Part shown: positions 8,687 to 42,100 of the stretch, piece after piece
Position numbering within the stretch: position 1 is the first letter of the stretch
How the letters are laid out: each line of letters opens with the position of its first letter
Assembly: GCA_026395685.1 (NCBI GenBank)
Contig: JAPLYG010000019.1
Location: 1 to 62,097 of the forward strand
Source of the DNA: Candidatus Parcubacteria bacterium
GTDB taxonomy: Bacteria; Patescibacteriota; Patescibacteriia; CAIXNZ01
Direction of reading: 5' to 3'
DNA: 62,097 bases
Notes under the pieces: generated by a model
Seen by the model: only the letters and a program-made list of their open reading frames with translations
Database searches by the model: none
What the model was told of the DNA's origin: nothing
Position numbers and translations under genes: made by a program

Positions 8687-8932
8687 TTATTTTTTGGGCA
8701 AAATCGGTCCCAACATCCAAAGTATGAGCGGTCCGAAAAGATTAAAAATCATTAAAAGACCTAAAATAACAAAGCCTATGCCCAGCAATTTGAAAAAAAA
8801 ATAAGTTCCCCCCTGCAAATGCTGCTCAGCCCATTCAATTCTGCCCACATTTTCAACAAACCAATCAGTTTTGGCTACTAATATTGGGCCTAAGATAAAA
8901 AAAATTCCGCCAAAAATTTGTACATATATCAT
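8687..8932 (-). CDS. Small hypothetical membrane protein
   Basis: 81 aa with three hydrophobic helices. Confidence 0.45.
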   Translation of the reverse strand: MIYVQIFGGIFFILGPILVAKTDWFVENVGRIEWAEQHLQGGTYFFFKLLGIGFVILGLLMIFNLFGPLILWMLGPILPKK

Positions 8933-9025
8933 AAACTCGAATTTTTACGCATTAAAACTCCGAAATCAATGCCAAAAAATATCTATAAGTATAATAGCAA
9001 AATATTGGATAATTGACAATTTTTC

Positions 9026-9054
9026 TTGATATTTAACAAAATAATTGCTATTAT
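9026..9054 (+). promoter_or_regulatory. Sigma70-type promoter (TTGATA-N17-TATTAT, TGC extended -10)
   Basis: TTGATA at 9026-9031, spacer ending in TGC, TATTAT at 9049-9054. Located 40 nt upstream of the ferredoxin ATG. Confidence 0.5.
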
Positions 9055-9094
9055 TTAGATATGAATAATTGCGCTTAATTCTTAAAAATTATCT

Positions 9095-11091: not shown

Positions 11092-12114
<1,023 letters not shown>

Positions 12115-18452: not shown

Positions 18453-18659
18453 TTAAATTCGCGATAAATAATTTTCTAAAATCGCCGGATCACTCTGCAG
18501 CATGTCGCAAATCATGATTTTTACGACCTCTTTTTTGGTACTCTCCTGCAATGGCAATCGGTTTACTGTTTGAAAAAGCACCTCGATTAAACGAGGCAAT
18601 GTTTCAATCTTTTCGCTTTCAATAAGCAACGGTATGTGCAAAGTATCATCATCTGCCAT
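18453..18659 (-). CDS. Small hypothetical protein (68 aa), start overlaps the M20 gene stop
   Basis: The ATG at 18659 overlaps the end of the M20 ORF by 11 nt, which suggests translational coupling. No recognisable motif. Confidence 0.45.
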   Translation of the reverse strand: MADDDTLHIPLLIESEKIETLPRLIEVLFQTVNRLPLQESTKKEVVKIMICDMLQSDPAILENYLSRI

Positions 18660-19803
18660 TACTATCCTCCGTTTCTGCTGTCAGAACCTTGAGATAAAAA
18701 TCAGTCAACAATTCCAGATCTTTGATTTCCAGATATTCATCCAGGCAATGCGGATTTCGTCCCGGTGAACCAATGACAACGGCGTTAATGCCTCTTTCCA
18801 CTAAAATATTGGCGTCAGAACCGCCAAAAGTATGAACAAATTGAGAGGTTACGCCCTGTTCTCCGAATTTTTGCTGGAGAAATCTTATAAAAGGATCATC
18901 TTGATCATAGAAATAACCAGTTGCCTTTCTCTCTGACGAAAAGCTAATTTCAGCACCCGTTTCAAGAGCCAGTTCACTGAATATTGCCTTGATGCTCTCC
19001 AATAAACTGAGATCCACTTCTATTTTAGGACCCCTGACTTCGCCATGAATAATGGCAAAATCAGGTACTGTATTACGCAAGGTCAAATTTTCAGCAATCT
19101 CGACCAGCTCTTTATCAGCCAGGCCTTTCAAGCCCACCACTGCAAAAGAAAGGTTCAGCCTGGTAAACTCATCAACCTTGCCCAAAGTCAGGCTATTAGC
19201 TGCCTTCAATAACAGATTGAAAGCGTTAAGGCCCTCCTCGCACTTTGACACATGAGCGCGCCGCCCTTTTATTGTGATATCAAAATTATAGTTAAAGGGC
19301 GCACTTTGGATAATTGAACCGTGGGCAAAAGGCGCATCAGCGATAATGCATTTTTTACTGTGAATCAATGAAAGATCCAGATTCTTGGCGCCCAAAGAGA
19401 TTGCTTCTTCTTCGCGGGTAAAGACAATTTCTACTGTCCGCATTTTCAAACAATTCTCTTTAATTAAAGTCAGAGCTTCTAAAATTGCGGCAATGGAATC
19501 CTTGTTGTCAGCTCCCAAAATAGTAGTGCCATCAGATCGAATCCGTCCGCCTGATATTACAGGCGTAATTTTTTCGCCTGGTCCTTTTGGGACAGTATCC
19601 ATATGAGCGCATAACATAATCGGCTCACCATAACCTGAGCGTCTGGCAATCAAATTGCCATAGGCATCATTGGTCACCTGAAAATTCAGATACTGCAGAT
19701 AGTGTATCAGGGCTTCGCTGATAAGCTTTTCAGAGCCGGCAGGGCTTTCAATTTGCGCTAATTCGCAAAAAGTCCTTACCAGCCGATCCTTGTCAATATT
19801 CAT
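18649..19803 (-). CDS. M20 family metallopeptidase/amidohydrolase (PepT/ArgE-like)
   Basis: 384 aa. CAHMDTV, GADNKDSIAAILEA, and the REEE acidic pair are typical of M20. Confidence 0.75.
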   Translation of the reverse strand: MNIDKDRLVRTFCELAQIESPAGSEKLISEALIHYLQYLNFQVTNDAYGNLIARRSGYGEPIMLCAHMDTVPKGPGEKITPVISGGRIRSDGTTILGADNKDSIAAILEALTLIKENCLKMRTVEIVFTREEEAISLGAKNLDLSLIHSKKCIIADAPFAHGSIIQSAPFNYNFDITIKGRRAHVSKCEEGLNAFNLLLKAANSLTLGKVDEFTRLNLSFAVVGLKGLADKELVEIAENLTLRNTVPDFAIIHGEVRGPKIEVDLSLLESIKAIFSELALETGAEISFSSERKATGYFYDQDDPFIRFLQQKFGEQGVTSQFVHTFGGSDANILVERGINAVVIGSPGRNPHCLDEYLEIKDLELLTDFYLKVLTAETEDSNGR

Positions 19804-19868
19804 AGTTTTTACCCCCTTTTGAACTGCTATTTAAACAATTACAAGTTTTTCTTGTTTCTGTCAACCAG

Positions 19869-20717
19869 CTACTGCCATTTCACGCTTTTCACTTTATCCA
19901 TGAATTTTTTAACCCTGGCTGTTTGCAGAGGATATTCCCAGGGGAAAATATTATGATAATCTTTTTTCTTTGGATTTGGCTGGCCCTTGAAATAACTGCC
20001 GACAATAAAAGCATTTACCTGATACTTTTCCATATTTTCAGGGGTAATACCGCTGCCAAGAAGAACAGGGATTTTGCCGGCTGATTTTCTTGCATCCTGA
20101 ACATCTTTTTCAGTCGGAGCATCACCTGTCCATTTGCCGGTAATAATAATTGCATCGGCTTTTTCTTTAATTGCCGCCTGCACTGCTTTTGTTAAGGGTC
20201 GCTTAATCAGATGCTTTGCATGTTTAACCTGGACATCGGCAAAAATCATAATATCTTCTGCTTTTATTTTTTTTCTAAAAGCGATTGCCTCTTTTGCTTT
20301 GGCTGAAAAAATACCATAATCGGTCTGCACTTTGTCAACAAAAACAGGGGTGCGGATAAACTGAAAGTTCGCCAGTTTTGCGATGGATAAAGCCGCTTCA
20401 TAATCATTCCATAAAACACAAAGTCCTAATGGCTTTTTCGTTAATCCCCTGGCCTCCAGACAAAGCTTTGTTAACTGCGGGAGGGTAGATGTTTTTGCCT
20501 TTTCATAATGAGGAATGTCATAATTATTTTCAATCATAATGGCATCAACTCCCCCAGAAACTAAAGCCCTGAAATCTGCCAAAAACTTTTTTTCCACCTT
20601 TTCAAGCCCGGGAAAACCTTCGTAGCCCAAAAGAGGCGCGCAATGAACCATGCCGATTACCAGCGGATATTTTTTCTTGAATAATTTAAACTTTAAGTTT
20701 GTCATAATTTTTATCAA
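19869..20717 (-). CDS. BtpA/SgcQ family TIM-barrel protein
   Basis: 282 aa. The VIGMVHCAPLLGYEGFPG ... IMIENNYDIPH pattern is characteristic of the BtpA family. Confidence 0.65.
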   Translation of the reverse strand: MIKIMTNLKFKLFKKKYPLVIGMVHCAPLLGYEGFPGLEKVEKKFLADFRALVSGGVDAIMIENNYDIPHYEKAKTSTLPQLTKLCLEARGLTKKPLGLCVLWNDYEAALSIAKLANFQFIRTPVFVDKVQTDYGIFSAKAKEAIAFRKKIKAEDIMIFADVQVKHAKHLIKRPLTKAVQAAIKEKADAIIITGKWTGDAPTEKDVQDARKSAGKIPVLLGSGITPENMEKYQVNAFIVGSYFKGQPNPKKKDYHNIFPWEYPLQTARVKKFMDKVKSVKWQ

Positions 20718-21513
20718 TATATTTTAAAATTTCCATAACTCCCCGCGAATATTTTTCCTTAGCCACGTAATCAGCGATTTTCTTTACTTCTGGCTGGGCA
20801 TTGCCAACCGCATAAAAATAATCAATTTCCTTTAATGTTTTCAAATCAGCCAAATCATCGCCAATCATAATATAGTTATAATTTTTATAATATTTTTTTA
20901 TTCGCTGAAGAGCAATTCCCTTATTAATATTTCTGGGCCAAAAAACAAAATTGGAAAATGACTTGGGAATTTCAACATCAAGATTTAATTTATGCTGTAT
21001 AAAATAATCAGCCAGGAATTTCCCCAACTTTCGTATTAATTCCAAATCCCGCACGCCGTATCTGAAAACATGAATACTGCCGGTATATTTGCGAAACCTA
21101 TTAGCCATAATTATCAGCGGTATTTTTTTCAAATTACTGTCTTTTATCAGCTTAACAGTATCCCCAAAAACAAAGCGCCCGCTGATCTTTTTTTTCGCCA
21201 TAAAAAGCTTAACCAGCCGGGCAGTCAGCTTATTGACTGCCAGAGGATTTTTTTCCAAAAAAACTTTTTTAGCCTTAATATTTTTCTGGAAGAAAACTCC
21301 GTTTTCCAAAATAACCGGGCCATTTAATTTGAAATATTTATAAATAGCCTCGACGTCATGCGCGGAACGATTTGAATTTAAGCCAAATAAAAAACCTTTG
21401 TGCGACATATCTTTTATCACCGAAGGCAACAAAGCAGAATTCGGCTTCTGATTCGGCATGATCAGCGTACCGTCAATATCTAAAAAAATTATTGTTTTTT
21501 GCAGTTTTTTCAT
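20686..21513 (-). CDS. HAD-IIB (Cof-like) phosphatase
   Basis: Start refined to MKKLQKTIIFLDIDGTL (ATG at 21513). DxDGT motif and C-terminal GDDLAD. The longer track ORF runs through a terminator hairpin. Confidence 0.7.
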   Translation of the reverse strand: MKKLQKTIIFLDIDGTLIMPNQKPNSALLPSVIKDMSHKGFLFGLNSNRSAHDVEAIYKYFKLNGPVILENGVFFQKNIKAKKVFLEKNPLAVNKLTARLVKLFMAKKKISGRFVFGDTVKLIKDSNLKKIPLIIMANRFRKYTGSIHVFRYGVRDLELIRKLGKFLADYFIQHKLNLDVEIPKSFSNFVFWPRNINKGIALQRIKKYYKNYNYIMIGDDLADLKTLKEIDYFYAVGNAQPEVKKIADYVAKEKYSRGVMEILKYIDKNYDKLKV

Positions 21514-21550
21514 AAAAAAATAGGGAGATATAGACAATCCTATATCTCCC
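21514..21550 (-). terminator. Intrinsic terminator/attenuator
   Basis: GGGAGAUAUAG-GAUUGU-CUAUAUCUCCC followed by UAUUUUUUU on the minus strand, immediately before the HAD ATG. Confidence 0.6.
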
Positions 21551-21556
21551 ATACTA

Positions 21557-22462
21557 TCAAAATTTGAGAATATTTTCAAGATATTTTTGCGCTTCTTCAA
21601 ACGCCTGCTTAGCCTTCTTCGGATCAGATTGGATTCTGAAACGAGCTGATAAAAAGCACTGCAGTAACCTGCCCAGGGAAAAAATATTTTCCGCAACCTC
21701 TTGAGGCAAGGAAAGTAGCCCGGCCACATCAGTCACGGCATAGTTCCTGATTATTTCATAACCTTCCTGCCAACAAGGCAAGTCATATACCTTTGCCACT
21801 CCGGCAAAACATGCCAAGCCCATAATTGGAATACCCAAGACCTCGTCGTGGGGATCGGAATATTTAATTCCCTGCTCAGTAAGGTAGACATCGTCGGGAG
21901 TAAAATCCCAGTTTGAGAAACAGCAGGACGCAACTTTCGGCAAACCCATGGCTTTTTCCAGCTGGGTTATTTGTATCTGCCCCTGGGGATCAAACGCCGA
22001 ACCAATGTATTTATAATACTGCTCCTCAACTTTTTTAATCACTGACAGCACTGACTCTCTGCCCTCAGGACCCTGCTTTAAACTTTGCCCGTATACCCTG
22101 CTTAGATCCTGAATCAATTTCCGATACATCGAGATCGGATCTGACGACTTTTTTATCTTAGTGATAAAGTCTTGCCCGCAATACTCCATCAAAATCCAGG
22201 AAACTTTCGGATCCAAACGATAAGCAATCAATCCGGGAATAAACCAATTCAGCCCCAAGGCGATCAATTTATTATACCCCCGGATATTCATGGCAATTTC
22301 CTTGATTGATTTTTCCGTAGTGCCGAGCTTTAGCACCTGCAAAACACCCTGCGGATTTCTGGCCAGATAGACCGCATCGCAGACATTGCCGAATACAAAC
22401 TTGTTTACGACTTCAAGGTCATTTTCTTTACATACGCGTTGCAGCAAGGCTTTGGAATCCAT
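21557..22462 (-). CDS. Putative kinase-fold (APH/choline-kinase-like) phosphotransferase
   Basis: Start refined to MDSKALL (AAGGAG lies 10 nt upstream). VLKLG lysine region and a degenerate catalytic-loop-like NWDFTPDDV...YSDP. Weak assignment. Confidence 0.4.
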   Translation of the reverse strand: MDSKALLQRVCKENDLEVVNKFVFGNVCDAVYLARNPQGVLQVLKLGTTEKSIKEIAMNIRGYNKLIALGLNWFIPGLIAYRLDPKVSWILMEYCGQDFITKIKKSSDPISMYRKLIQDLSRVYGQSLKQGPEGRESVLSVIKKVEEQYYKYIGSAFDPQGQIQITQLEKAMGLPKVASCCFSNWDFTPDDVYLTEQGIKYSDPHDEVLGIPIMGLACFAGVAKVYDLPCWQEGYEIIRNYAVTDVAGLLSLPQEVAENIFSLGRLLQCFLSARFRIQSDPKKAKQAFEEAQKYLENILKF

Positions 22463-22466
22463 GGGA

Positions 22467-23063
22467 TTATTTCTCCTTCTCAACCAGCAGAGTCAGACAG
22501 CCCAACTTTTTGGCAGTCTCAAGGTTGGGAGCTTCATCATCAATAAATACAACTCTTTGTCCCAGATTTAACGCAGGCTGCAACACGTCAAAAGCTCTTT
22601 TATCAGGCTTTTGATGGTAACAGATTTCCCTCATCCCATAAATAGCTGAGAATAAATCCCTGATGCCCAGTGATCTTAAAATCAGATCAGCGTATTCAGA
22701 CGGATTATTGGTTAAGACAATTTTTTTGCCCACCAACGAAGAAATAATCCTTCTTAAATAAGGAGACTCTGTAATCCCATAATCCTGGGGGCAAATTCTC
22801 AGATAAGTTTCCCGGATAAAAATCTCAGGATCAATACCTTCTGCCTTAAGCGCAATCAGCGTGTATTTTGTGTTATGCAGGCTAAGAAGTTGTTTTCTGA
22901 TTTTTACAGCTTCTTGCAGGCTGACGCCATAGCAATCAGCAATAAAGCTGATCATCAAAGAAACAATCGCTGTTTCAATGCCTCTCATGGAATACAAAGT
23001 CCCGTCGTTATCAAAAACCCATAAATCAGCCTGCAATTCTTTAATGTTTTCCGGAATCATCAT
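22467..23063 (-). CDS. HAD superfamily hydrolase (pyrimidine 5'-nucleotidase-like subfamily IA)
   Basis: 198 aa. VFDNDGTLY (DxDxT), LTNN, FIDDEAPN. RBS AAGGAGG. Confidence 0.7.
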   Translation of the reverse strand: MMIPENIKELQADLWVFDNDGTLYSMRGIETAIVSLMISFIADCYGVSLQEAVKIRKQLLSLHNTKYTLIALKAEGIDPEIFIRETYLRICPQDYGITESPYLRRIISSLVGKKIVLTNNPSEYADLILRSLGIRDLFSAIYGMREICYHQKPDKRAFDVLQPALNLGQRVVFIDDEAPNLETAKKLGCLTLLVEKEK

Positions 23064-23134: not shown

Positions 23135-24301
23135 TTAAGATTTCTTCGGCAGCATTTTACTGACTGCCAGGACTTTCTGGTAGGGTGCGCCGCTGAGGTA
23201 AACCTCTTTAGCACGGTTATAGCAACTTCTCATATCTCGCGAAAAGTCAGCCAGATAGAAAAGCAGAGCCGCATTGGCAAGGACCATCTCAACTGCCGGT
23301 CCTGAAACTTCTTGCTTCAAAATTGCCAGGGAAAATTCCCCTTTGGAAATACCACTGGGCGGAGAAATCAAGGCTGCATCGACTGGCTTAATGCCAAAGT
23401 CTTCCGCAAAAATGGTGTAGTTTTTGATTTCACCGTCAATGATCTCTGCAACTTGAGTGCCACCCGGACAAATTGAAACTTCATCCATGCCACGGCAACT
23501 CTCACGATCAGCAAAGCCTCTGACAAAAAGACCATGTTCCAGCTGGGTAACGCCTCTACTGTTTAATATCAGGTAGGCTTGGGCAACCACATTTACTGGA
23601 ATCAAATGGTTTACTCCGACAATTCGGCGAGTAAGAAGGTGCGGCGCCAACGGATTGGTGATCGGGCCGATAATATCGTTCATGTGCGGCAGCCTGGCTA
23701 CCTCGTGAGTCTGCAGATGAATGCGTTTGTAACGCACATCCAAAGCTTCAGTATAGCCAAAGCCTTCAGTTTCAACACAGCGTTCAGTGTCATTCTTATG
23801 GGCAAAGAGATCAATGCCCAGCATAGAAATGAAATCTGAACTGCCGTGCTTGCCCGCATCAGCATTTGCCGGAGAGCCATGTTTGCAGATGGGAATCCCG
23901 GCGGCCGCTGCAATAAATGCGGAAATCGTGCTGACATTGGCAGTGACGATAAGATCACCGCCCATTCCGCAATTATCCATGGCATACGGTACCCGCGGAT
24001 TCAAAAATCCAAATTCCGAGAGAGCAATATCATGCTCAAAAATCGCCGCGCAAATTCCGGCAATCTGCTCAGCTGCTGTTTTTGGCAAACTATGGCTATG
24101 CCATGACGAAGCATGGTCAAACTCTTGCCATTCATAAGTTGCTTTGCCATGAAGCGCACAGAGAGCAGCAATGCTTTGAATCTGAGCAAGGCTATTGCCC
24201 TTACAACCTTCTAAGGCATAAACGCCTAACTCGAAGGCCTCATAATAGGTCAAAGGTATATTTTGATACGCATGATCCTTGAGTATGTGCCTGATATCCA
24301 T
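23135..24301 (-). CDS. Anthranilate phosphoribosyltransferase (TrpD) family paralog, atypical
   Basis: Start refined to MDIRHIL (GGAGGG RBS). GMGGD..TANVST, KHG with an insertion then GSSD, and IIGPITNP all match TrpD/GT-family-3 motifs, with deviations. Confidence 0.75.
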   Translation of the reverse strand: MDIRHILKDHAYQNIPLTYYEAFELGVYALEGCKGNSLAQIQSIAALCALHGKATYEWQEFDHASSWHSHSLPKTAAEQIAGICAAIFEHDIALSEFGFLNPRVPYAMDNCGMGGDLIVTANVSTISAFIAAAAGIPICKHGSPANADAGKHGSSDFISMLGIDLFAHKNDTERCVETEGFGYTEALDVRYKRIHLQTHEVARLPHMNDIIGPITNPLAPHLLTRRIVGVNHLIPVNVVAQAYLILNSRGVTQLEHGLFVRGFADRESCRGMDEVSICPGGTQVAEIIDGEIKNYTIFAEDFGIKPVDAALISPPSGISKGEFSLAILKQEVSGPAVEMVLANAALLFYLADFSRDMRSCYNRAKEVYLSGAPYQKVLAVSKMLPKKS

Positions 24302-24552
24302 CTTCTTTCCCTCCTTTGAGAAAGTGTTAAACAAAAATTTTGAGAACCTTTATCACTAAGGGATAGTCTTTCAAATCCCGAAAAAAGCCGTCGCTACTGC
24401 CCGAAAACAGGCCCGTAGCTTCAAGCGTTATTATTTTTTAAGGTACTTTTAAGGTCTTCTGACCTTAAGAATTTTGTCTTAAAACAATCATCTTAAAGTC
24501 ACAAGCGCTAATGACTCTTAAATTTATGCTATTTATCTGGCTTTGTCAACTA

Positions 24553-24835
24553 AATAAAAAACTCGTCCTTTTAGCACAATTAAAACATTGTGTTATAAGG
24601 ACGAGATTCTTAATCCCGCGATACCACCTTGATTGTCTGATAATTATCAGACCGCTTTTACTGACTCAGTTTCCCTTGCTCTAGCAAGGAACGACATCAG
24701 TTATCCTATGATTACGGAGGAAGCCGGGTTCGCACTTTTGCACAAACCACCTTTTACGGGTAAACGTAAGTACTTAGCCCCAACCCTCCGCTATGCGGAG
24801 GAACTAAGCGTAGGTTTTATAATTGTAAAGATATA
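24553..24835 (-). promoter_or_regulatory. T-box riboswitch leader (short Stem I, T-box sequence, antiterminator/terminator)
   Basis: The minus strand AAUCAAGGUGGUAUCGCG (24615-24636 region) matches 15 of 18 positions of the T-box consensus. Terminator CUCGUCCUU...AAGGACGAG plus U6 lies at 24553-24605, with alternative antiterminator pairings. A Stem I-like hairpin at 24773-24808 carries a UUGGG bulge. Confidence 0.8.
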
Positions 24836-24839
24836 TTTA

Positions 24840-24868
24840 TATAATATCATATTATTGAATACTGTCAA
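24840..24868 (-). promoter_or_regulatory. Sigma70-type promoter of the T-box leader
   Basis: The minus strand reads TTGACA (24868-24863)-N16-TATTAT. Confidence 0.5.
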
Positions 24869-26755: not shown

Positions 26756-26830
26756 GGGCGCGTCGGTTAGCGGCCAAACCAACGGTCTCCAAAACCGTCA
26801 CCGTGGGTTCGAGTCCCACCGCGCCCGCCA
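26756..26830 (+). tRNA. tRNA-Trp (anticodon CCA), GC-rich, CCA end encoded, G73
   Basis: GGGCGCG TC GGTT AGCGGCCA AACC A ACGGT CTCCAAA ACCGT CACC GTGGG TTCGAGT CCCAC CGCGCCC G CCA folds as a canonical cloverleaf. Confidence 0.85.
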
Positions 26831-26958: not shown

Positions 26959-28092
26959 TTAAAAAGTTTTCGTGACTAGTACGGTAATATAAGAGCCGTA
27001 TGGCGAGTTTTCCAAACTTGTATCAATCTTGCCCATGTGAGCTTTAAGCTGGTCATTCAGAGTGTATTCTGGCAGTAAACCAGAAACAGTAGGAAAAGTA
27101 TTTATCCTGCTGATCACAAATTTTGGGGAAAATAAGTCTGTTACTTCATCCTGAGAATATGCTCTGGCATAAACCAAATAGCTCCTAGCGCCGTTTAATT
27201 TAACTTCCAGGCAATTTTTTGGCCGGTTAATAACAGCGTTTAAGCTGACTGGCCAGGGAATGAAAGGAAAATCATAGATCAAAGCTTCAGAATTATAAAA
27301 GGATAAAAAAGCTCCGCCATGGGGCTGCAAAACCCTTTCAATTTCCCGAATAACTCCCTTGATATCCCTGAAATCACTGGCTGTGCCAAGATTACAGACT
27401 ACCAAAGAAACTGATTCGTCTTTGAGCGGAATGCCATTTTCGAAATCAACAACTTCAAAGGAAATATTATGATTTTTACGATCCTCAGCATTCATCTGGG
27501 CAACTTCAATCATGGTCGGGCTAAGGTCATAGGCCTTAACCTGTTTAAAGCGCTTTGCCAAGAAAAAACTCATCAAGCCGGTAGCGCAACCAAGGTCAAC
27601 TGCCAGCTGATTTGGCAAATGATTAAAGCTTTCAAGCAAACATTTTTGCTCATAGGCCTGATAGGACCTCAAAGCAAAACCTGCTTTATCATGATAGCGT
27701 TCATCATAGTTAAGAGCGAACGCGGCAGTCAGCTCCAGCAAGGTTTGCTTTTTGGCAGCATACCAGGCATCATCCATTTCTTCAGATCTTTTCGGTTTTG
27801 GCCTGGTTTCATCCTGAAGCTGCTGCAATTGTATTTTGCAGGATTCATCAATAATAAAATAGAGCAAGGAAGCTGCAAAATTGGCATTAATACCATATTT
27901 TTCAGCTAACTCCATTATTTTATTTACCCGATCGCTTTCAGTAGAAAGACGAACTATCTTAACAGCATCAATTTCTTTGCTTTCCGCAACTTGCCGTACC
28001 AATGAAAATCTGCGTTCCAAGACAGCCAATAACATTTCATCAACTTGGGCAATCAAAGGTCCCAATTCCGAAAGAGTTAGCGATCTCGGCAT
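26959..28092 (-). CDS. Chorismate mutase (AroQ-like) domain fused to a class I SAM methyltransferase
   Basis: Start refined to MPRSLTL (GGGGAG lies 7 nt upstream). The N-terminus L..LI..VDEMLL.VLERRF.L...V...K resembles AroQ CM. The MT motif I is AVDLGCATGL. Confidence 0.65.
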   Translation of the reverse strand: MPRSLTLSELGPLIAQVDEMLLAVLERRFSLVRQVAESKEIDAVKIVRLSTESDRVNKIMELAEKYGINANFAASLLYFIIDESCKIQLQQLQDETRPKPKRSEEMDDAWYAAKKQTLLELTAAFALNYDERYHDKAGFALRSYQAYEQKCLLESFNHLPNQLAVDLGCATGLMSFFLAKRFKQVKAYDLSPTMIEVAQMNAEDRKNHNISFEVVDFENGIPLKDESVSLVVCNLGTASDFRDIKGVIREIERVLQPHGGAFLSFYNSEALIYDFPFIPWPVSLNAVINRPKNCLEVKLNGARSYLVYARAYSQDEVTDLFSPKFVISRINTFPTVSGLLPEYTLNDQLKAHMGKIDTSLENSPYGSYITVLVTKTF

Positions 28093-28108
28093 GTCCATAC
28101 TCCCCTCA

Positions 28109-28134
28109 ATAAAAAGGGGCTCTAATCGAGCCCC
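28109..28134 (-). terminator. Hairpin plus U-run enclosing the trpS2 stop codon
   Basis: GGGGCUC-GAUUA-GAGCCCC followed by UUUUU on the minus strand. The TAG stop of TrpRS2 lies in the loop. Confidence 0.55.
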
Positions 28135-29108
28135 ATTGCTTGTCTGACCTGATGCAAGGTCGGCCGGGCGCTGACTTTTGCCCTTTTGGCGCACTCGACC
28201 AACACGTCCCGAACATAGTCGTCGTTATAGCTGTAGTATTTTTCCTGAATCGGCGCCAGCAAAGCGACCACTTTTTCAGCGGCCATCTGCTTGCATTCCA
28301 CGCAAGACAAAGTTCCGGCTTTACATCCCTGCATAATGGCAATGATCTCCTGATCAGTGCACAACAGGTTATGCAAGGGGTAGATGCTGCCGCAGTTATT
28401 GAGCGGGTCACCCGGATCATTGCGGTGGATTCTGTTGGTGTCGGTTAAACCGCTTTTCACTTTTTCCCTGATGGTCGTTGCATCATCCAGCAAATCAATG
28501 CCGTTGTTATGCGACTTTCCCATCTTGCTTCCATCCAGACCGGGTAAACGAACTGCTTCGTTTTCCAGCGTCTTGGGAATGGCGAAAATGTTTTCATAAA
28601 GATGATTGAAGCGGTGGGCAAACGCGCGAGCCATTTCCACATGCGGAATCTGGTCGCTGCCCACGGGCACAATCGTAGCCCTGTGGATGAGAATATCCGA
28701 GGCCATCAAAACCGGATAAGTCAGCAGTCCGTGATTAACATTATCCGGATTTTCACGAACCTTTTCTTTGAAAGTCGTGCAGCGTTCCAATTCACCAAGC
28801 TGGACAACCATGCCCAAAAGCAGGGTCAATTCCGCCACTTCGGGCAAAGACGACTGATAATAAACCACGGACCGATTAGGGTCAATACCAGTGGCCAAGA
28901 ATGTTTTCACAATCGGCAACCGATTTTGCCTTAATACATCCGGGTCAGGGTGCGTAGTTAAAGTGTGATAATCAGCGACAAAGAAAAAGCACTGATGCTT
29001 TTCCTGCAGCGGGAAAAAATTCCGAATTGCTCCGAAATAGTTGCCCAAATGCAGTTTTCCCGTCGCGCGGATTCCCGACACTACAACCGGCAAACCTTCA
29101 TCGTTCAT
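28122..29108 (-). CDS. trpS: Tryptophanyl-tRNA synthetase, second divergent copy with a C-x22-C-x6-C-x2-C motif
   Basis: 328 aa. HIGH-type motif KLHLGN, KMGKS, and the TrpRS core (VGSDQIPH). NNC-x22-C-x6-C-x2-C in the C-terminal domain. More GC-rich than trpS at 11092. RBS AAGGAG. Confidence 0.85.
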   Translation of the reverse strand: MNDEGLPVVVSGIRATGKLHLGNYFGAIRNFFPLQEKHQCFFFVADYHTLTTHPDPDVLRQNRLPIVKTFLATGIDPNRSVVYYQSSLPEVAELTLLLGMVVQLGELERCTTFKEKVRENPDNVNHGLLTYPVLMASDILIHRATIVPVGSDQIPHVEMARAFAHRFNHLYENIFAIPKTLENEAVRLPGLDGSKMGKSHNNGIDLLDDATTIREKVKSGLTDTNRIHRNDPGDPLNNCGSIYPLHNLLCTDQEIIAIMQGCKAGTLSCVECKQMAAEKVVALLAPIQEKYYSYNDDYVRDVLVECAKRAKVSARPTLHQVRQAMGLD

Positions 29109-41933: not shown

Positions 41934-42004
41934 GGGGGCGTGGTGAAGTGGTATCACAGAGGTCTCCAAAACCTTTATCGTGGGTTCAATTCCTACCGCC
42001 CCTG
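41934..42004 (+). tRNA. tRNA-Trp (anticodon CCA), G73, CCA end not encoded
   Basis: GGGGGCGTGGTGAAGTGGTATCACAGAGGTCTCCAAAACCTTTATCGTGGGTTCAATTCCTACCGCCCCTG folds as a cloverleaf with anticodon loop CTCCAAA. Confidence 0.9.
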
Positions 42005-42100
42005 CTCGTAAAAAAAAGACTGTTTAATTATTGGCTTGTTTTCGTTAGACTAACCCTTCCGGATTGATTAATTAGGCATTTTATGATATGTTGTTAATAT

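Follow-up and report, generated by a model that had tools for sequence, protein, structure and literature searches.

A predicted tRNA-Trp T-box riboswitch with a truncated Stem I in front of a TrpD-like operon of Patescibacteria

Described T-box riboswitches and the leader of the TrpD-like gene

The element considered here is a leader on the minus strand in front of a TrpD-like gene, within a 62,097-nt stretch of DNA from a Candidatus Parcubacteria bacterium (contig JAPLYG010000019.1; the whole stretch is referred to as the window, and all coordinates are those of the window). Its closest described relatives are the transcriptional T-box riboswitches of the Firmicutes (Rfam family RF00230), and among them the Trp-specific ones of trpS genes and trp operons. 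With these the leader shares a 7-nt UGGN bulge in an antiterminator/terminator switch, a specifier codon on the 3' side of Stem I that is followed by a purine, a Stem II, a IIA/B pseudoknot with an F-box and a flanked Stem III, as well as the U:G73 wobble and the regulation of Trp-related genes. Unlike them, it belongs to the Patescibacteria, and its Stem I carries neither an AG bulge nor a distal loop nor the interdigitated T-loop platform; there is no clear K-turn in the window but a three-way junction with a small hairpin, an extra helix stands between the pseudoknot and Stem III, and the apex of Stem II reads UGCR/AGUG, not GAA/AGUA. The purine following the codon is G, whereas it is A in the characterised T-boxes cited in a review of the class (PMC7583486).

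A truncated Stem I without the elbow platform is known from the actinobacterial ileS T-boxes, represented by the structures from Mycobacterium and Nocardia (Sherwood, Grundy and Henkin 2015, as covered in PMC7583486). Their intermediate type, like the present leader, holds the specifier in a side bulge under a short cap, while the ultrashort type holds it in an apical loop, as do a few of the relatives described below, and the Stem II and IIA/B pseudoknot, presumably essential for binding of the tRNA, are kept in these T-boxes as they are here. They differ in being translational, acting by sequestration of the Shine-Dalgarno (SD) sequence, and in being Ile-specific, whereas here a terminator, a Trp codon and a TrpD-like operon are found; they also come from another phylum, and the small hairpin and the extra helix are additional features of the leader described here. 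The glyQS-type T-boxes are likewise minimalised and yet transcriptional, but in the reverse manner, having a long Stem I with platform and no Stem II and pseudoknot. Dispensability of the platform has been described as a trait of translational T-boxes, with the transcriptional ones generally needing a long Stem I (PMC7583486); as every aligned member of the present family has a platform-less Stem I together with an intrinsic terminator, two features that are usually separate in that account are combined here. In the searchable literature no T-box report is tied to Patescibacteria or the candidate phyla radiation (CPR), and where a paper names both a riboswitch and Patescibacteria, as a few do, the mention is incidental; a prior description of a platform-less Stem I with a terminator is possible.

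The leader is very probably a tRNA-Trp-specific T-box that controls transcription termination of the TrpD-like operon. This reading builds on the elements of the leader, its two alternative folds, their covariation among relatives, the conservation of the specifier and of the base opposite the tRNA discriminator, and the gene contexts, from which binding of the tRNA, discrimination between its charged and uncharged forms and read-through would follow.

Elements of the leader and alignment to RF00230

The promoter, the first hairpin with its UUGGG bulge, Stem III, the T-box sequence and the switch, all of which had been listed in an initial, sequence-only reading of the window, are present where that reading had placed them (Table 1). 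The T-box sequence, AAUCAAGGUGGUAUCGCG, agrees with the T-box consensus at 15 of 18 positions, an independent count that reproduces the earlier one, and its core, GGTGGNAYCRCG, occurs once in the 62 kb, compared with 0.03 occurrences expected. Folding of the complete expression platform yields the terminator (-35.5 kcal/mol, z -6.3), whereas the platform lacking the 3' half of the terminator folds as a canonical antiterminator with the 7-nt bulge UGGUAUC. The segment CUCGUCCUU is common to the 3' strand of the antiterminator and to the terminator, and the two conformations are mutually exclusive. An intrinsic terminator of the upstream radical SAM gene (24909-24886) precedes the promoter of the leader.

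Judged from folding and covariation, the Stem I region is a three-way junction in which the specifier arm and a small hairpin meet at a base helix (ACCU/AGGU). The specifier arm has an outer helix, CUUAGU (24808-24803) with GCUAAG (24778-24773), and an inner hairpin, UCCUCCGC-AUA-GCGGAGGG (24802-24784). Above the specifier it is an uninterrupted 8-bp helix closed by a triloop, with neither an AG bulge nor a distal platform, in keeping with the short Stem I proposed earlier, and this part of the arm varies in length and sequence among the relatives and carries no conserved motif. At the base, the two strands read ACC-UAC-GC... and ...AA-GGU, the hairpin being inserted in the non-bulged strand. 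A different base helix, UACG/CGUA, which appears in the RF00230 alignment, was ruled out by the covariation and by folding of the individual sequences.

Following Stem II, an F-box-like CCGUAA (24717-24712) lies inside the IIA/B pseudoknot in place of the consensus CCGUUA. The extra helix, which forms an insertion in the RF00230 alignment, is capped by UUCCUUGC-UAGA-GCAAGGGAA, and Stem III itself, GUCUGAUAAUUAUCAGAC (24652-24635), is preceded by AAGCG and followed by AA, as in the RRRxG-Stem III-AA flanking motif of T-boxes (PMC7583486). In a permissive local scan of an 801-nt region, RF00230 aligned over its full length with 52.1 bits (E 2e-10); the 3' half was aligned with high posterior probability, and a 70-nt core of Stem I was collapsed. 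This alignment, together with the folding and the covariation described next, upholds the identification of the leader as a T-box.

Covariation and distribution of the family

A scan with one genome per species gave 46 loci encoding TrpD-like relatives at no more than 70% identity, nearly all of them from metagenome-assembled genomes (MAGs) of Patescibacteria (CPR) and a few from DPANN archaea, and in 20 loci the T-box core lies on the coding strand 5' of the TrpD-like gene. The 5' domain was evaluated on a MAFFT alignment of 17 leaders (A2), on which the structure was drawn by hand, and the 3' half on a full-length alignment of 20 leaders (A1), with slid versions of the structure as controls, shifted by 1 to 3 columns for the 5' domain.

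Taken over P1, the specifier arm, Stem II, IIA and IIB together, 94.6% of the cells of A2 are paired and 22 of 30 pairs show compensatory changes, compared with at most 58% paired in the slid controls. P1 taken by itself is paired to 95.6%, with compensatory changes in three of its four pairs (90.4% and four of four in the metagenomic alignment A4), and Stem II to 97.1%, with changes in five of six pairs (98% and six of six in A4). All six pairs of the outer helix of the specifier arm and four of the six of its inner helix are compensatory, a result replicated in the metagenomic set; Stem IIA is invariant, and four of the five pairs of the IIB pseudoknot vary in a compensatory manner. In the 20 leaders of A1 the antiterminator is paired to 96.1% and the terminator to 92.9% or 93.6%, with compensatory changes in 7 of its 12 pairs, the slid controls reaching at most 59% for either, and every one of these leaders has a hairpin followed by a U-run. 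The mutually exclusive antiterminator and terminator of the sequence-only reading are therefore both predicted by folding and both conserved with compensatory changes. On the 3' side of the pseudoknot, the extra helix is 90.8% paired in A1 and covaries at all four of its pairs. The segment of the small hairpin folds into a single hairpin in 39 of the 41 distinct relatives that have at least 12 nt there (median z -4.1), and these hairpins are unrelated to one another in sequence; in a second subtype the hairpin is absent and a joint of just 2 nt takes its place.

Searches with R1, a covariance model built on the 5' domain, gave a single element in the window and a single one in each of 24 loci, 8 of which lie outside the seed; all these elements are located upstream on the coding strand. 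The element of the window, itself one of the seed sequences, scores 105 bits, which is mid-range for the family. R1 finds no element in the DPANN loci, and no T-box-like leader was seen in three archaeal TrpD-like loci (L041, L044 and L045). A metagenome scan with a pattern that does not contain the specifier (the AGUG of Stem II, the CGG of Stem IIA and the F-box) returned 80 loci, in which R1 recognises 45 elements; these are 96.3% paired, with compensatory changes in 19 of 25 pairs and slid controls of at most 57%. Altogether at least 70 related elements were found in Patescibacteria-type loci and metagenomic contigs.

Several members deviate in detail. L027 (115-290, +) carries an insertion of about 160 nt within the region of the IIA/B pseudoknot, its 5' and 3' halves being otherwise intact. 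L005 has a second, different T-box-like leader with a terminator (8830-9080, +), whose first hairpin, CCGGA-GUCGCGA-UCCGG, is very short and may hold a specifier in its apical loop; its core is GGGUGGUACCGCG, and it precedes an open reading frame (ORF) that begins MKKINKLWGTAF. This second leader suggests that CPR genomes carry T-boxes for further amino acids.

Specifier codon and match to the tRNA

The bulge of the specifier arm reads N-UGG-G in all 25 elements of the genome set, with the first base variable and UGG and the following G invariant, and UGGG stands at the bulge in about 40 of the 45 metagenomic elements as well. Three of the 25 genome-derived elements are without the inner hairpin and have UGGG in an apical loop, and L010, L029, L032, L073 and L098 correspond to the ultrashort type of Stem I in that their specifier is in the apical loop. 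With the first bulge base variable, the UUG and GUU registers that had been considered possible by eye are not conserved, and UGG is left as the Trp specifier that had been favoured.

The base of the T-box bulge that lies opposite the tRNA discriminator is C in 12 and U in 13 of these elements, never A or G, and only C or U is found at this position of UGGN in the metagenomic elements too. All 12 linked tRNA-Trp genes that were examined have G73. The concern that the UGGU of the window would pair best with a tRNA having A73 was justified in that a U:G73 wobble is needed, but it does not amount to a mismatch: such a wobble is common in Trp T-boxes, 46% of the known ones in TBDB reading UGGU against a G73 tRNA (PMC7778990), and the UGGC of other family members excludes A73.

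A natural variant of the specifier is provided by L094 (1057-1390, +), in which the same geometry presents a U-UCG-G bulge, with UCG being a Ser codon, and UGGC in the T-box bulge. The gene downstream encodes a SerA-family D-2-hydroxyacid dehydrogenase (PF02826, E 7e-28). Bacterial tRNA-Ser normally has G73, and the agreement of the Ser codon, this discriminator and the serine-pathway gene sets the codon register at positions 2 to 4 of the bulge. L119 (336-600, +) is a degenerate copy of the UCG variant whose 5' arm looks degenerate. L111 was considered as a Tyr (UAC) variant and rejected, since its fold has a G-UGG-G bulge of the usual kind together with a nested hairpin.

The genes that follow the UGG members include TrpD-like genes (L047, L053, L100, L104 and L114), TrpRS (L062 and L124), TrpA (PF00290, E 3e-63) with a TrpB-like pyridoxal phosphate enzyme (L049), other TrpB-like enzymes (L065 and L090) and an amino-acid dehydrogenase with an aminotransferase (L086), and several further members precede unknown genes. 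A conserved protein of 282-285 aa without a Pfam match is encoded directly behind the UGG T-boxes of L093 and L111, and in L111 genes for an Asp/Glu racemase and a class-I synthetase of the Trp/Tyr type (404 aa) come after its ORF.

The predicted Trp specificity consequently rests on conservation of the specifier, the discriminator match, the natural swap to Ser and the classical Trp genes, reaching beyond the gene context of the window, on which the assignment had been thought mostly to depend. The likely ligand is the tRNA-Trp of the cluster together with the second tRNA-Trp of the window, as judged from their genes (Table 1).

Table 1. Features of the leader, of the presumed operon and of the tRNA-Trp genes in the window
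Feature	Position	Strand	Details
Leader promoter	24841..24868	-	TTGACA 24868-24863, N16, TATTAT 24846-24841; 11 of 12 consensus matches; TG before the -10
P1 base helix, 5' strand ACCU	24812..24815	-	partner AGGU 24749-24752; minimum free energy (MFE) fold of the whole leader and covariation
Specifier arm (truncated Stem I)	24773..24808	-	outer helix, inner hairpin, 5-nt bulge on the 3' side
Specifier bulge UUGGG	24779..24783	-	codon UGG 24782-24780, then conserved purine G 24779
Small hairpin UUACG-UUUACC-CGUAA	24754..24769	-	between specifier arm and P1 return strand; creates the three-way junction
P1 base helix, 3' strand AGGU	24749..24752	-	whole-leader MFE; covariation
Stem II GGUUUG...CGAACC	24727..24748	-	conserved apical UGCR...AGUG; aligned to RF00230 Stem II
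Stem IIA/B pseudoknot	24704..24726	-	IIA CGG/CCG; loop UCCU pairs with AGGA 24707-24704
Extra helix CUGA/UCAG	24661..24700	-	conserved internal loop AUGUCG/GAG; capped
Stem III with flanks	24635..24657	-	AAGCG before, AA after
T-box sequence	24617..24634	-	7-nt bulge UGGUAUC at 24626-24620
Antiterminator	24597..24630	-	helix A1 AAGG/CCUU, bulge, helix A2 GCGGGAUU/AAUCUCGU
Intrinsic terminator and U6	24556..24605	-	19-bp hairpin 24605-24562; U6 24561-24556
TrpD-like phosphoribosyltransferase, first regulated gene	23135..24301	-	388 aa from ATG 24301; SD AAGGAGG 24316-24310
Rest of presumed operon	18649..23063	-	HAD-IA phosphatase, unknown 308-aa protein, Cof-type HAD, BtpA, M20 peptidase
Cluster tRNA-Trp(CCA)	26756..26830	+	G73; encoded CCA end
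Second tRNA-Trp(CCA)	41934-42005	+	no encoded CCA end

Proposed mechanism and points that weigh against it

In the mechanism proposed for the leader, transcription would proceed from the TTGACA/TATTAT promoter, and the nascent RNA would form the three-way junction, whose long arm presents UGG and the 3' purine in the 5-nt bulge, followed by Stem II, the IIA/B pseudoknot, the extra helix and Stem III. The CCA anticodon of tRNA-Trp would pair with the UGG, and an uncharged tRNA would in addition pair its terminal G73-C-C-A with the UGGU of the 7-nt bulge, including the G73:U wobble, thereby stabilising the antiterminator and allowing the polymerase to read through into the TrpD-like/BtpA operon. 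With charged tRNA, the stronger terminator hairpin and its U6 would form instead and transcription would stop. On this model the operon would be turned on when tryptophan runs short. The elbow of the tRNA is presumably not contacted in this model, since Stem I has no distal platform, and the missing affinity is presumed to be supplied by Stem II and the pseudoknot, by analogy with the actinobacterial T-boxes with a short Stem I.

Several observations weigh against this reading. The gathering score of RF00230 is 93 bits, and at that threshold there was no match, either in a scan of the whole window or in 16 related leaders, so that the covariance-model check suggested for the sequence-only reading came out below gathering even though it gave a full-length alignment with a low E-value; the low score is ascribed to the Stem I without distal platform. 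The window shows no evident canonical K-turn at its Stem I base, while L023 and L031, of the subtype without the small hairpin, have a K-turn-like UGA...GA arrangement, and the UGCR...AGUG apex of Stem II differs from the canonical GAA/AGUA S-turn. The distal platform of Stem I, absent here, has been described as essential for transcriptional T-boxes (PMC7583486). The predicted response to tRNA has sequence, folding and covariation as its basis.

A further point concerns the spacer of 250 nt (24302-24552, -) that extends from the U-run to the start codon, a distance that in relatives measures about 50-60 nt or accommodates an entire additional gene. It starts with a promoter-like TTGACA, N17, TAAATT (24549-24521, 10 of 12 matches), from which there could be a T-box-independent basal expression that bypasses the switch. 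The spacer also contains a hairpin, GCUACGGGCCUG-UUUU-CGGGCAGUAGC (24419-24393), followed by a U-run, and is otherwise only moderately structured (z -2.7); it holds no ORF, has no Rfam match and shows no homology to the other loci. The idea that it is the remnant of a gene for a low-molecular-weight phosphatase, an EamA transporter or a glutamine amidotransferase, such as those present at this place in some relatives, was discarded, no significant similarity being found.

Alternative explanations

The position of the promoter-like site directly after the U-run, and the lack of a counterpart of the spacer elsewhere, would also suit a leader that is a decayed or bypassed relic, with the operon driven from the site 3' of the terminator. 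Such hexamer pairs are nevertheless common in AT-rich DNA (6 were found in this stretch, compared with 1.8 expected), the window retains all conserved positions and helices of the family, this seed sequence scoring 105 bits with R1, and its terminator and antiterminator are well formed; a second promoter, moreover, would add basal expression and not abolish the control by the T-box of transcripts from the first. A relic is accordingly a very unlikely explanation, although the least unlikely of the four weighed here. Slightly less probable still is a recent horizontal transfer that brought in the T-box together with its cluster, from Firmicutes or a lineage of that kind; a horizontal origin had been suggested by the sequence-only reading. 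T-boxes are most abundant in Firmicutes, and with a GC content of 0.42-0.43 the cluster slightly exceeds some of the segments next to it, but this value lies within the range of the window (0.36-0.43), other parts of which equal it. The nearest TrpD-like relatives are all from Patescibacteria or DPANN, at no more than 70% identity; the gene order of the cluster is common to many CPR MAGs, L008 for example; and the architecture of the leader is common to 24 such loci and unlike that of the Firmicutes type (52 bits, compared with the gathering score of 93). The element looks like a native one, lineage-wide in the CPR, as far as sequence comparison can tell: T-boxes do appear to be undescribed for the lineage in the searchable literature, but the synteny, the 24 loci and the GC content speak against the horizontal origin that had been proposed from the unusual background.

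A T-box that reads another tRNA, through a Leu (UUG), Val (GUU) or Gly (GGG) codon in a different register of the bulge, is less probable again. The context GUUGGGG in the window does hold all three triplets by eye, and UGGU would pair perfectly with an A73 tRNA such as the tRNA-Leu and tRNA-Val of the window. Yet the base before UGG is U, C, G or A among the relatives, which leaves neither UUG nor GUU conserved, and the UGGC found in half of the family cannot pair with A73, whether of tRNA-Leu or tRNA-Val. Against the Gly register counts the discriminator of bacterial tRNA-Gly, U73, for which neither C nor U is a pairing partner. The genes downstream of the relatives are Trp genes (TrpA, TrpB-like, TrpRS and TrpD-like), and the Ser variant L094 places the codon at positions 2 to 4. 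The most improbable of all is a control of translation by SD sequestration, for which it can be said that the T-boxes with a truncated Stem I described so far are mostly translational (PMC7583486). In this leader, the antiterminator competes with a 19-bp hairpin and U6, a classical intrinsic terminator; a hairpin and U-run recur in all 20 aligned leaders, the hairpin with compensatory changes, and the SD sequence lies 250 nt downstream, outside the switch. The evidence continues to favour the reading of the leader as a tRNA-Trp-specific T-box that would act by transcription termination.

The regulated operon and its gene neighbourhood

The start codon of the first regulated gene is backed by a conserved 5' end. 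Its TrpD-like product has the family-3 glycosyltransferase fold (PF00591) and scores 150 bits with the trpD equivalog TIGR01245, below the cutoff of 199; all its matches among PDB sequences are anthranilate phosphoribosyltransferases (best E 1.8e-24). The phosphoribosyl pyrophosphate loop motif is GMGGD where TrpD has GTGGD, and there is an insertion in the KHGN region. BtpA, in the same presumed operon, has no match among PDB sequences, and no paper linking BtpA with an anthranilate phosphoribosyltransferase was found in the searchable literature. Upstream of the leader lie the radical SAM/SPASM gene, a flavin reductase, the tRNA-Trp, a chorismate-mutase-methyltransferase fusion and a TrpRS.

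Of the 46 loci, 40 have BtpA next to the TrpD-like gene, 21 have a TrpRS near it, 10 a tRNA-Trp(CCA) within a few kb and 9 the chorismate-mutase-methyltransferase fusion as a neighbour. L008 has nearly the order seen in the window, with TrpRS, flavin reductase, radical SAM gene, T-box, TrpD-like gene, BtpA, M20 peptidase and tRNA-Trp. By this synteny, the window is best taken as a genome segment of the Patescibacteria type. In some loci another gene stands directly behind the T-box, ahead of the TrpD-like gene, namely an ORF resembling low-molecular-weight phosphatases (L009, L023 and L039), an EamA/DMT transporter (L010, L015 and L029, fragmented in the last) or a TrpG-like class-I glutamine amidotransferase (L032, L038 and L042, frameshifted in the last).

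The fusion ORF of the window (26959-28194, -) joins a type II chorismate mutase to a class I S-adenosylmethionine-dependent methyltransferase and lies directly 3' of the cluster TrpRS, the end of which it overlaps. There are two TrpRS paralogs in the window (11092-12111 and 28122-29108, both -), 33% identical to each other and both passing the cutoff of the trpS equivalog. One of the pair lies inside the T-box cluster, as does one of the two different tRNA-Trp genes; L022, L023, L025 and L039 likewise have two TrpRS genes within 9 kb. Six contigs with a CPR-type TrpD-like gene (L007, L011, L022, L023, L028 and L037) are recorded as "uncultured archaeon", "uncultured Gammaproteobacteria" or "Micavibrio sp."; most of these have BtpA or TrpRS, and L022, L023 and L037 have the T-box leader. 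These labels may stem from MAGs that were mis-binned or named generically. An ORF resembling IS200/Y1-type transposases (536-1084, -) is found near the start of the window.

Significance

Tryptophan synthesis is not expected in CPR bacteria and DPANN archaea. It can be proposed, tentatively and with rather less than even confidence, that the leader belongs to a Patescibacteria-wide class of co-transcriptional tRNA-Trp T-boxes without elbow contact, and that the regulon of this class reveals an undescribed tryptophan acquisition or salvage module of CPR and DPANN. If this is true, the module would consist of the TrpD-like protein and BtpA, often with a TrpG-like amidotransferase, the chorismate-mutase-methyltransferase fusion, an extra TrpRS and a dedicated tRNA-Trp, and the elbow-free class would contradict the view of the Stem I platform as essential for transcriptional T-boxes, offering a natural test of what elbow docking contributes to the kinetic, co-transcriptional sensing of tRNA.

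Gene regulation in the CPR has been described as virtually unknown (PMC11665869). The at least 70 elements fall below the Rfam threshold and hence go unannotated in CPR genomes, a gap in annotation that the present family makes apparent. A Trp T-box may also serve as a functional label, marking the widespread TrpD-like/BtpA pair and several other unknown genes as predicted to be induced by deacylation of tRNA-Trp, in organisms considered incapable of amino-acid synthesis. This label would be a lead to the biochemistry of TrpD-like and BtpA proteins, and the switch, being compact, native and defined in its ligand, could become a genetic tool in Patescibacteria.

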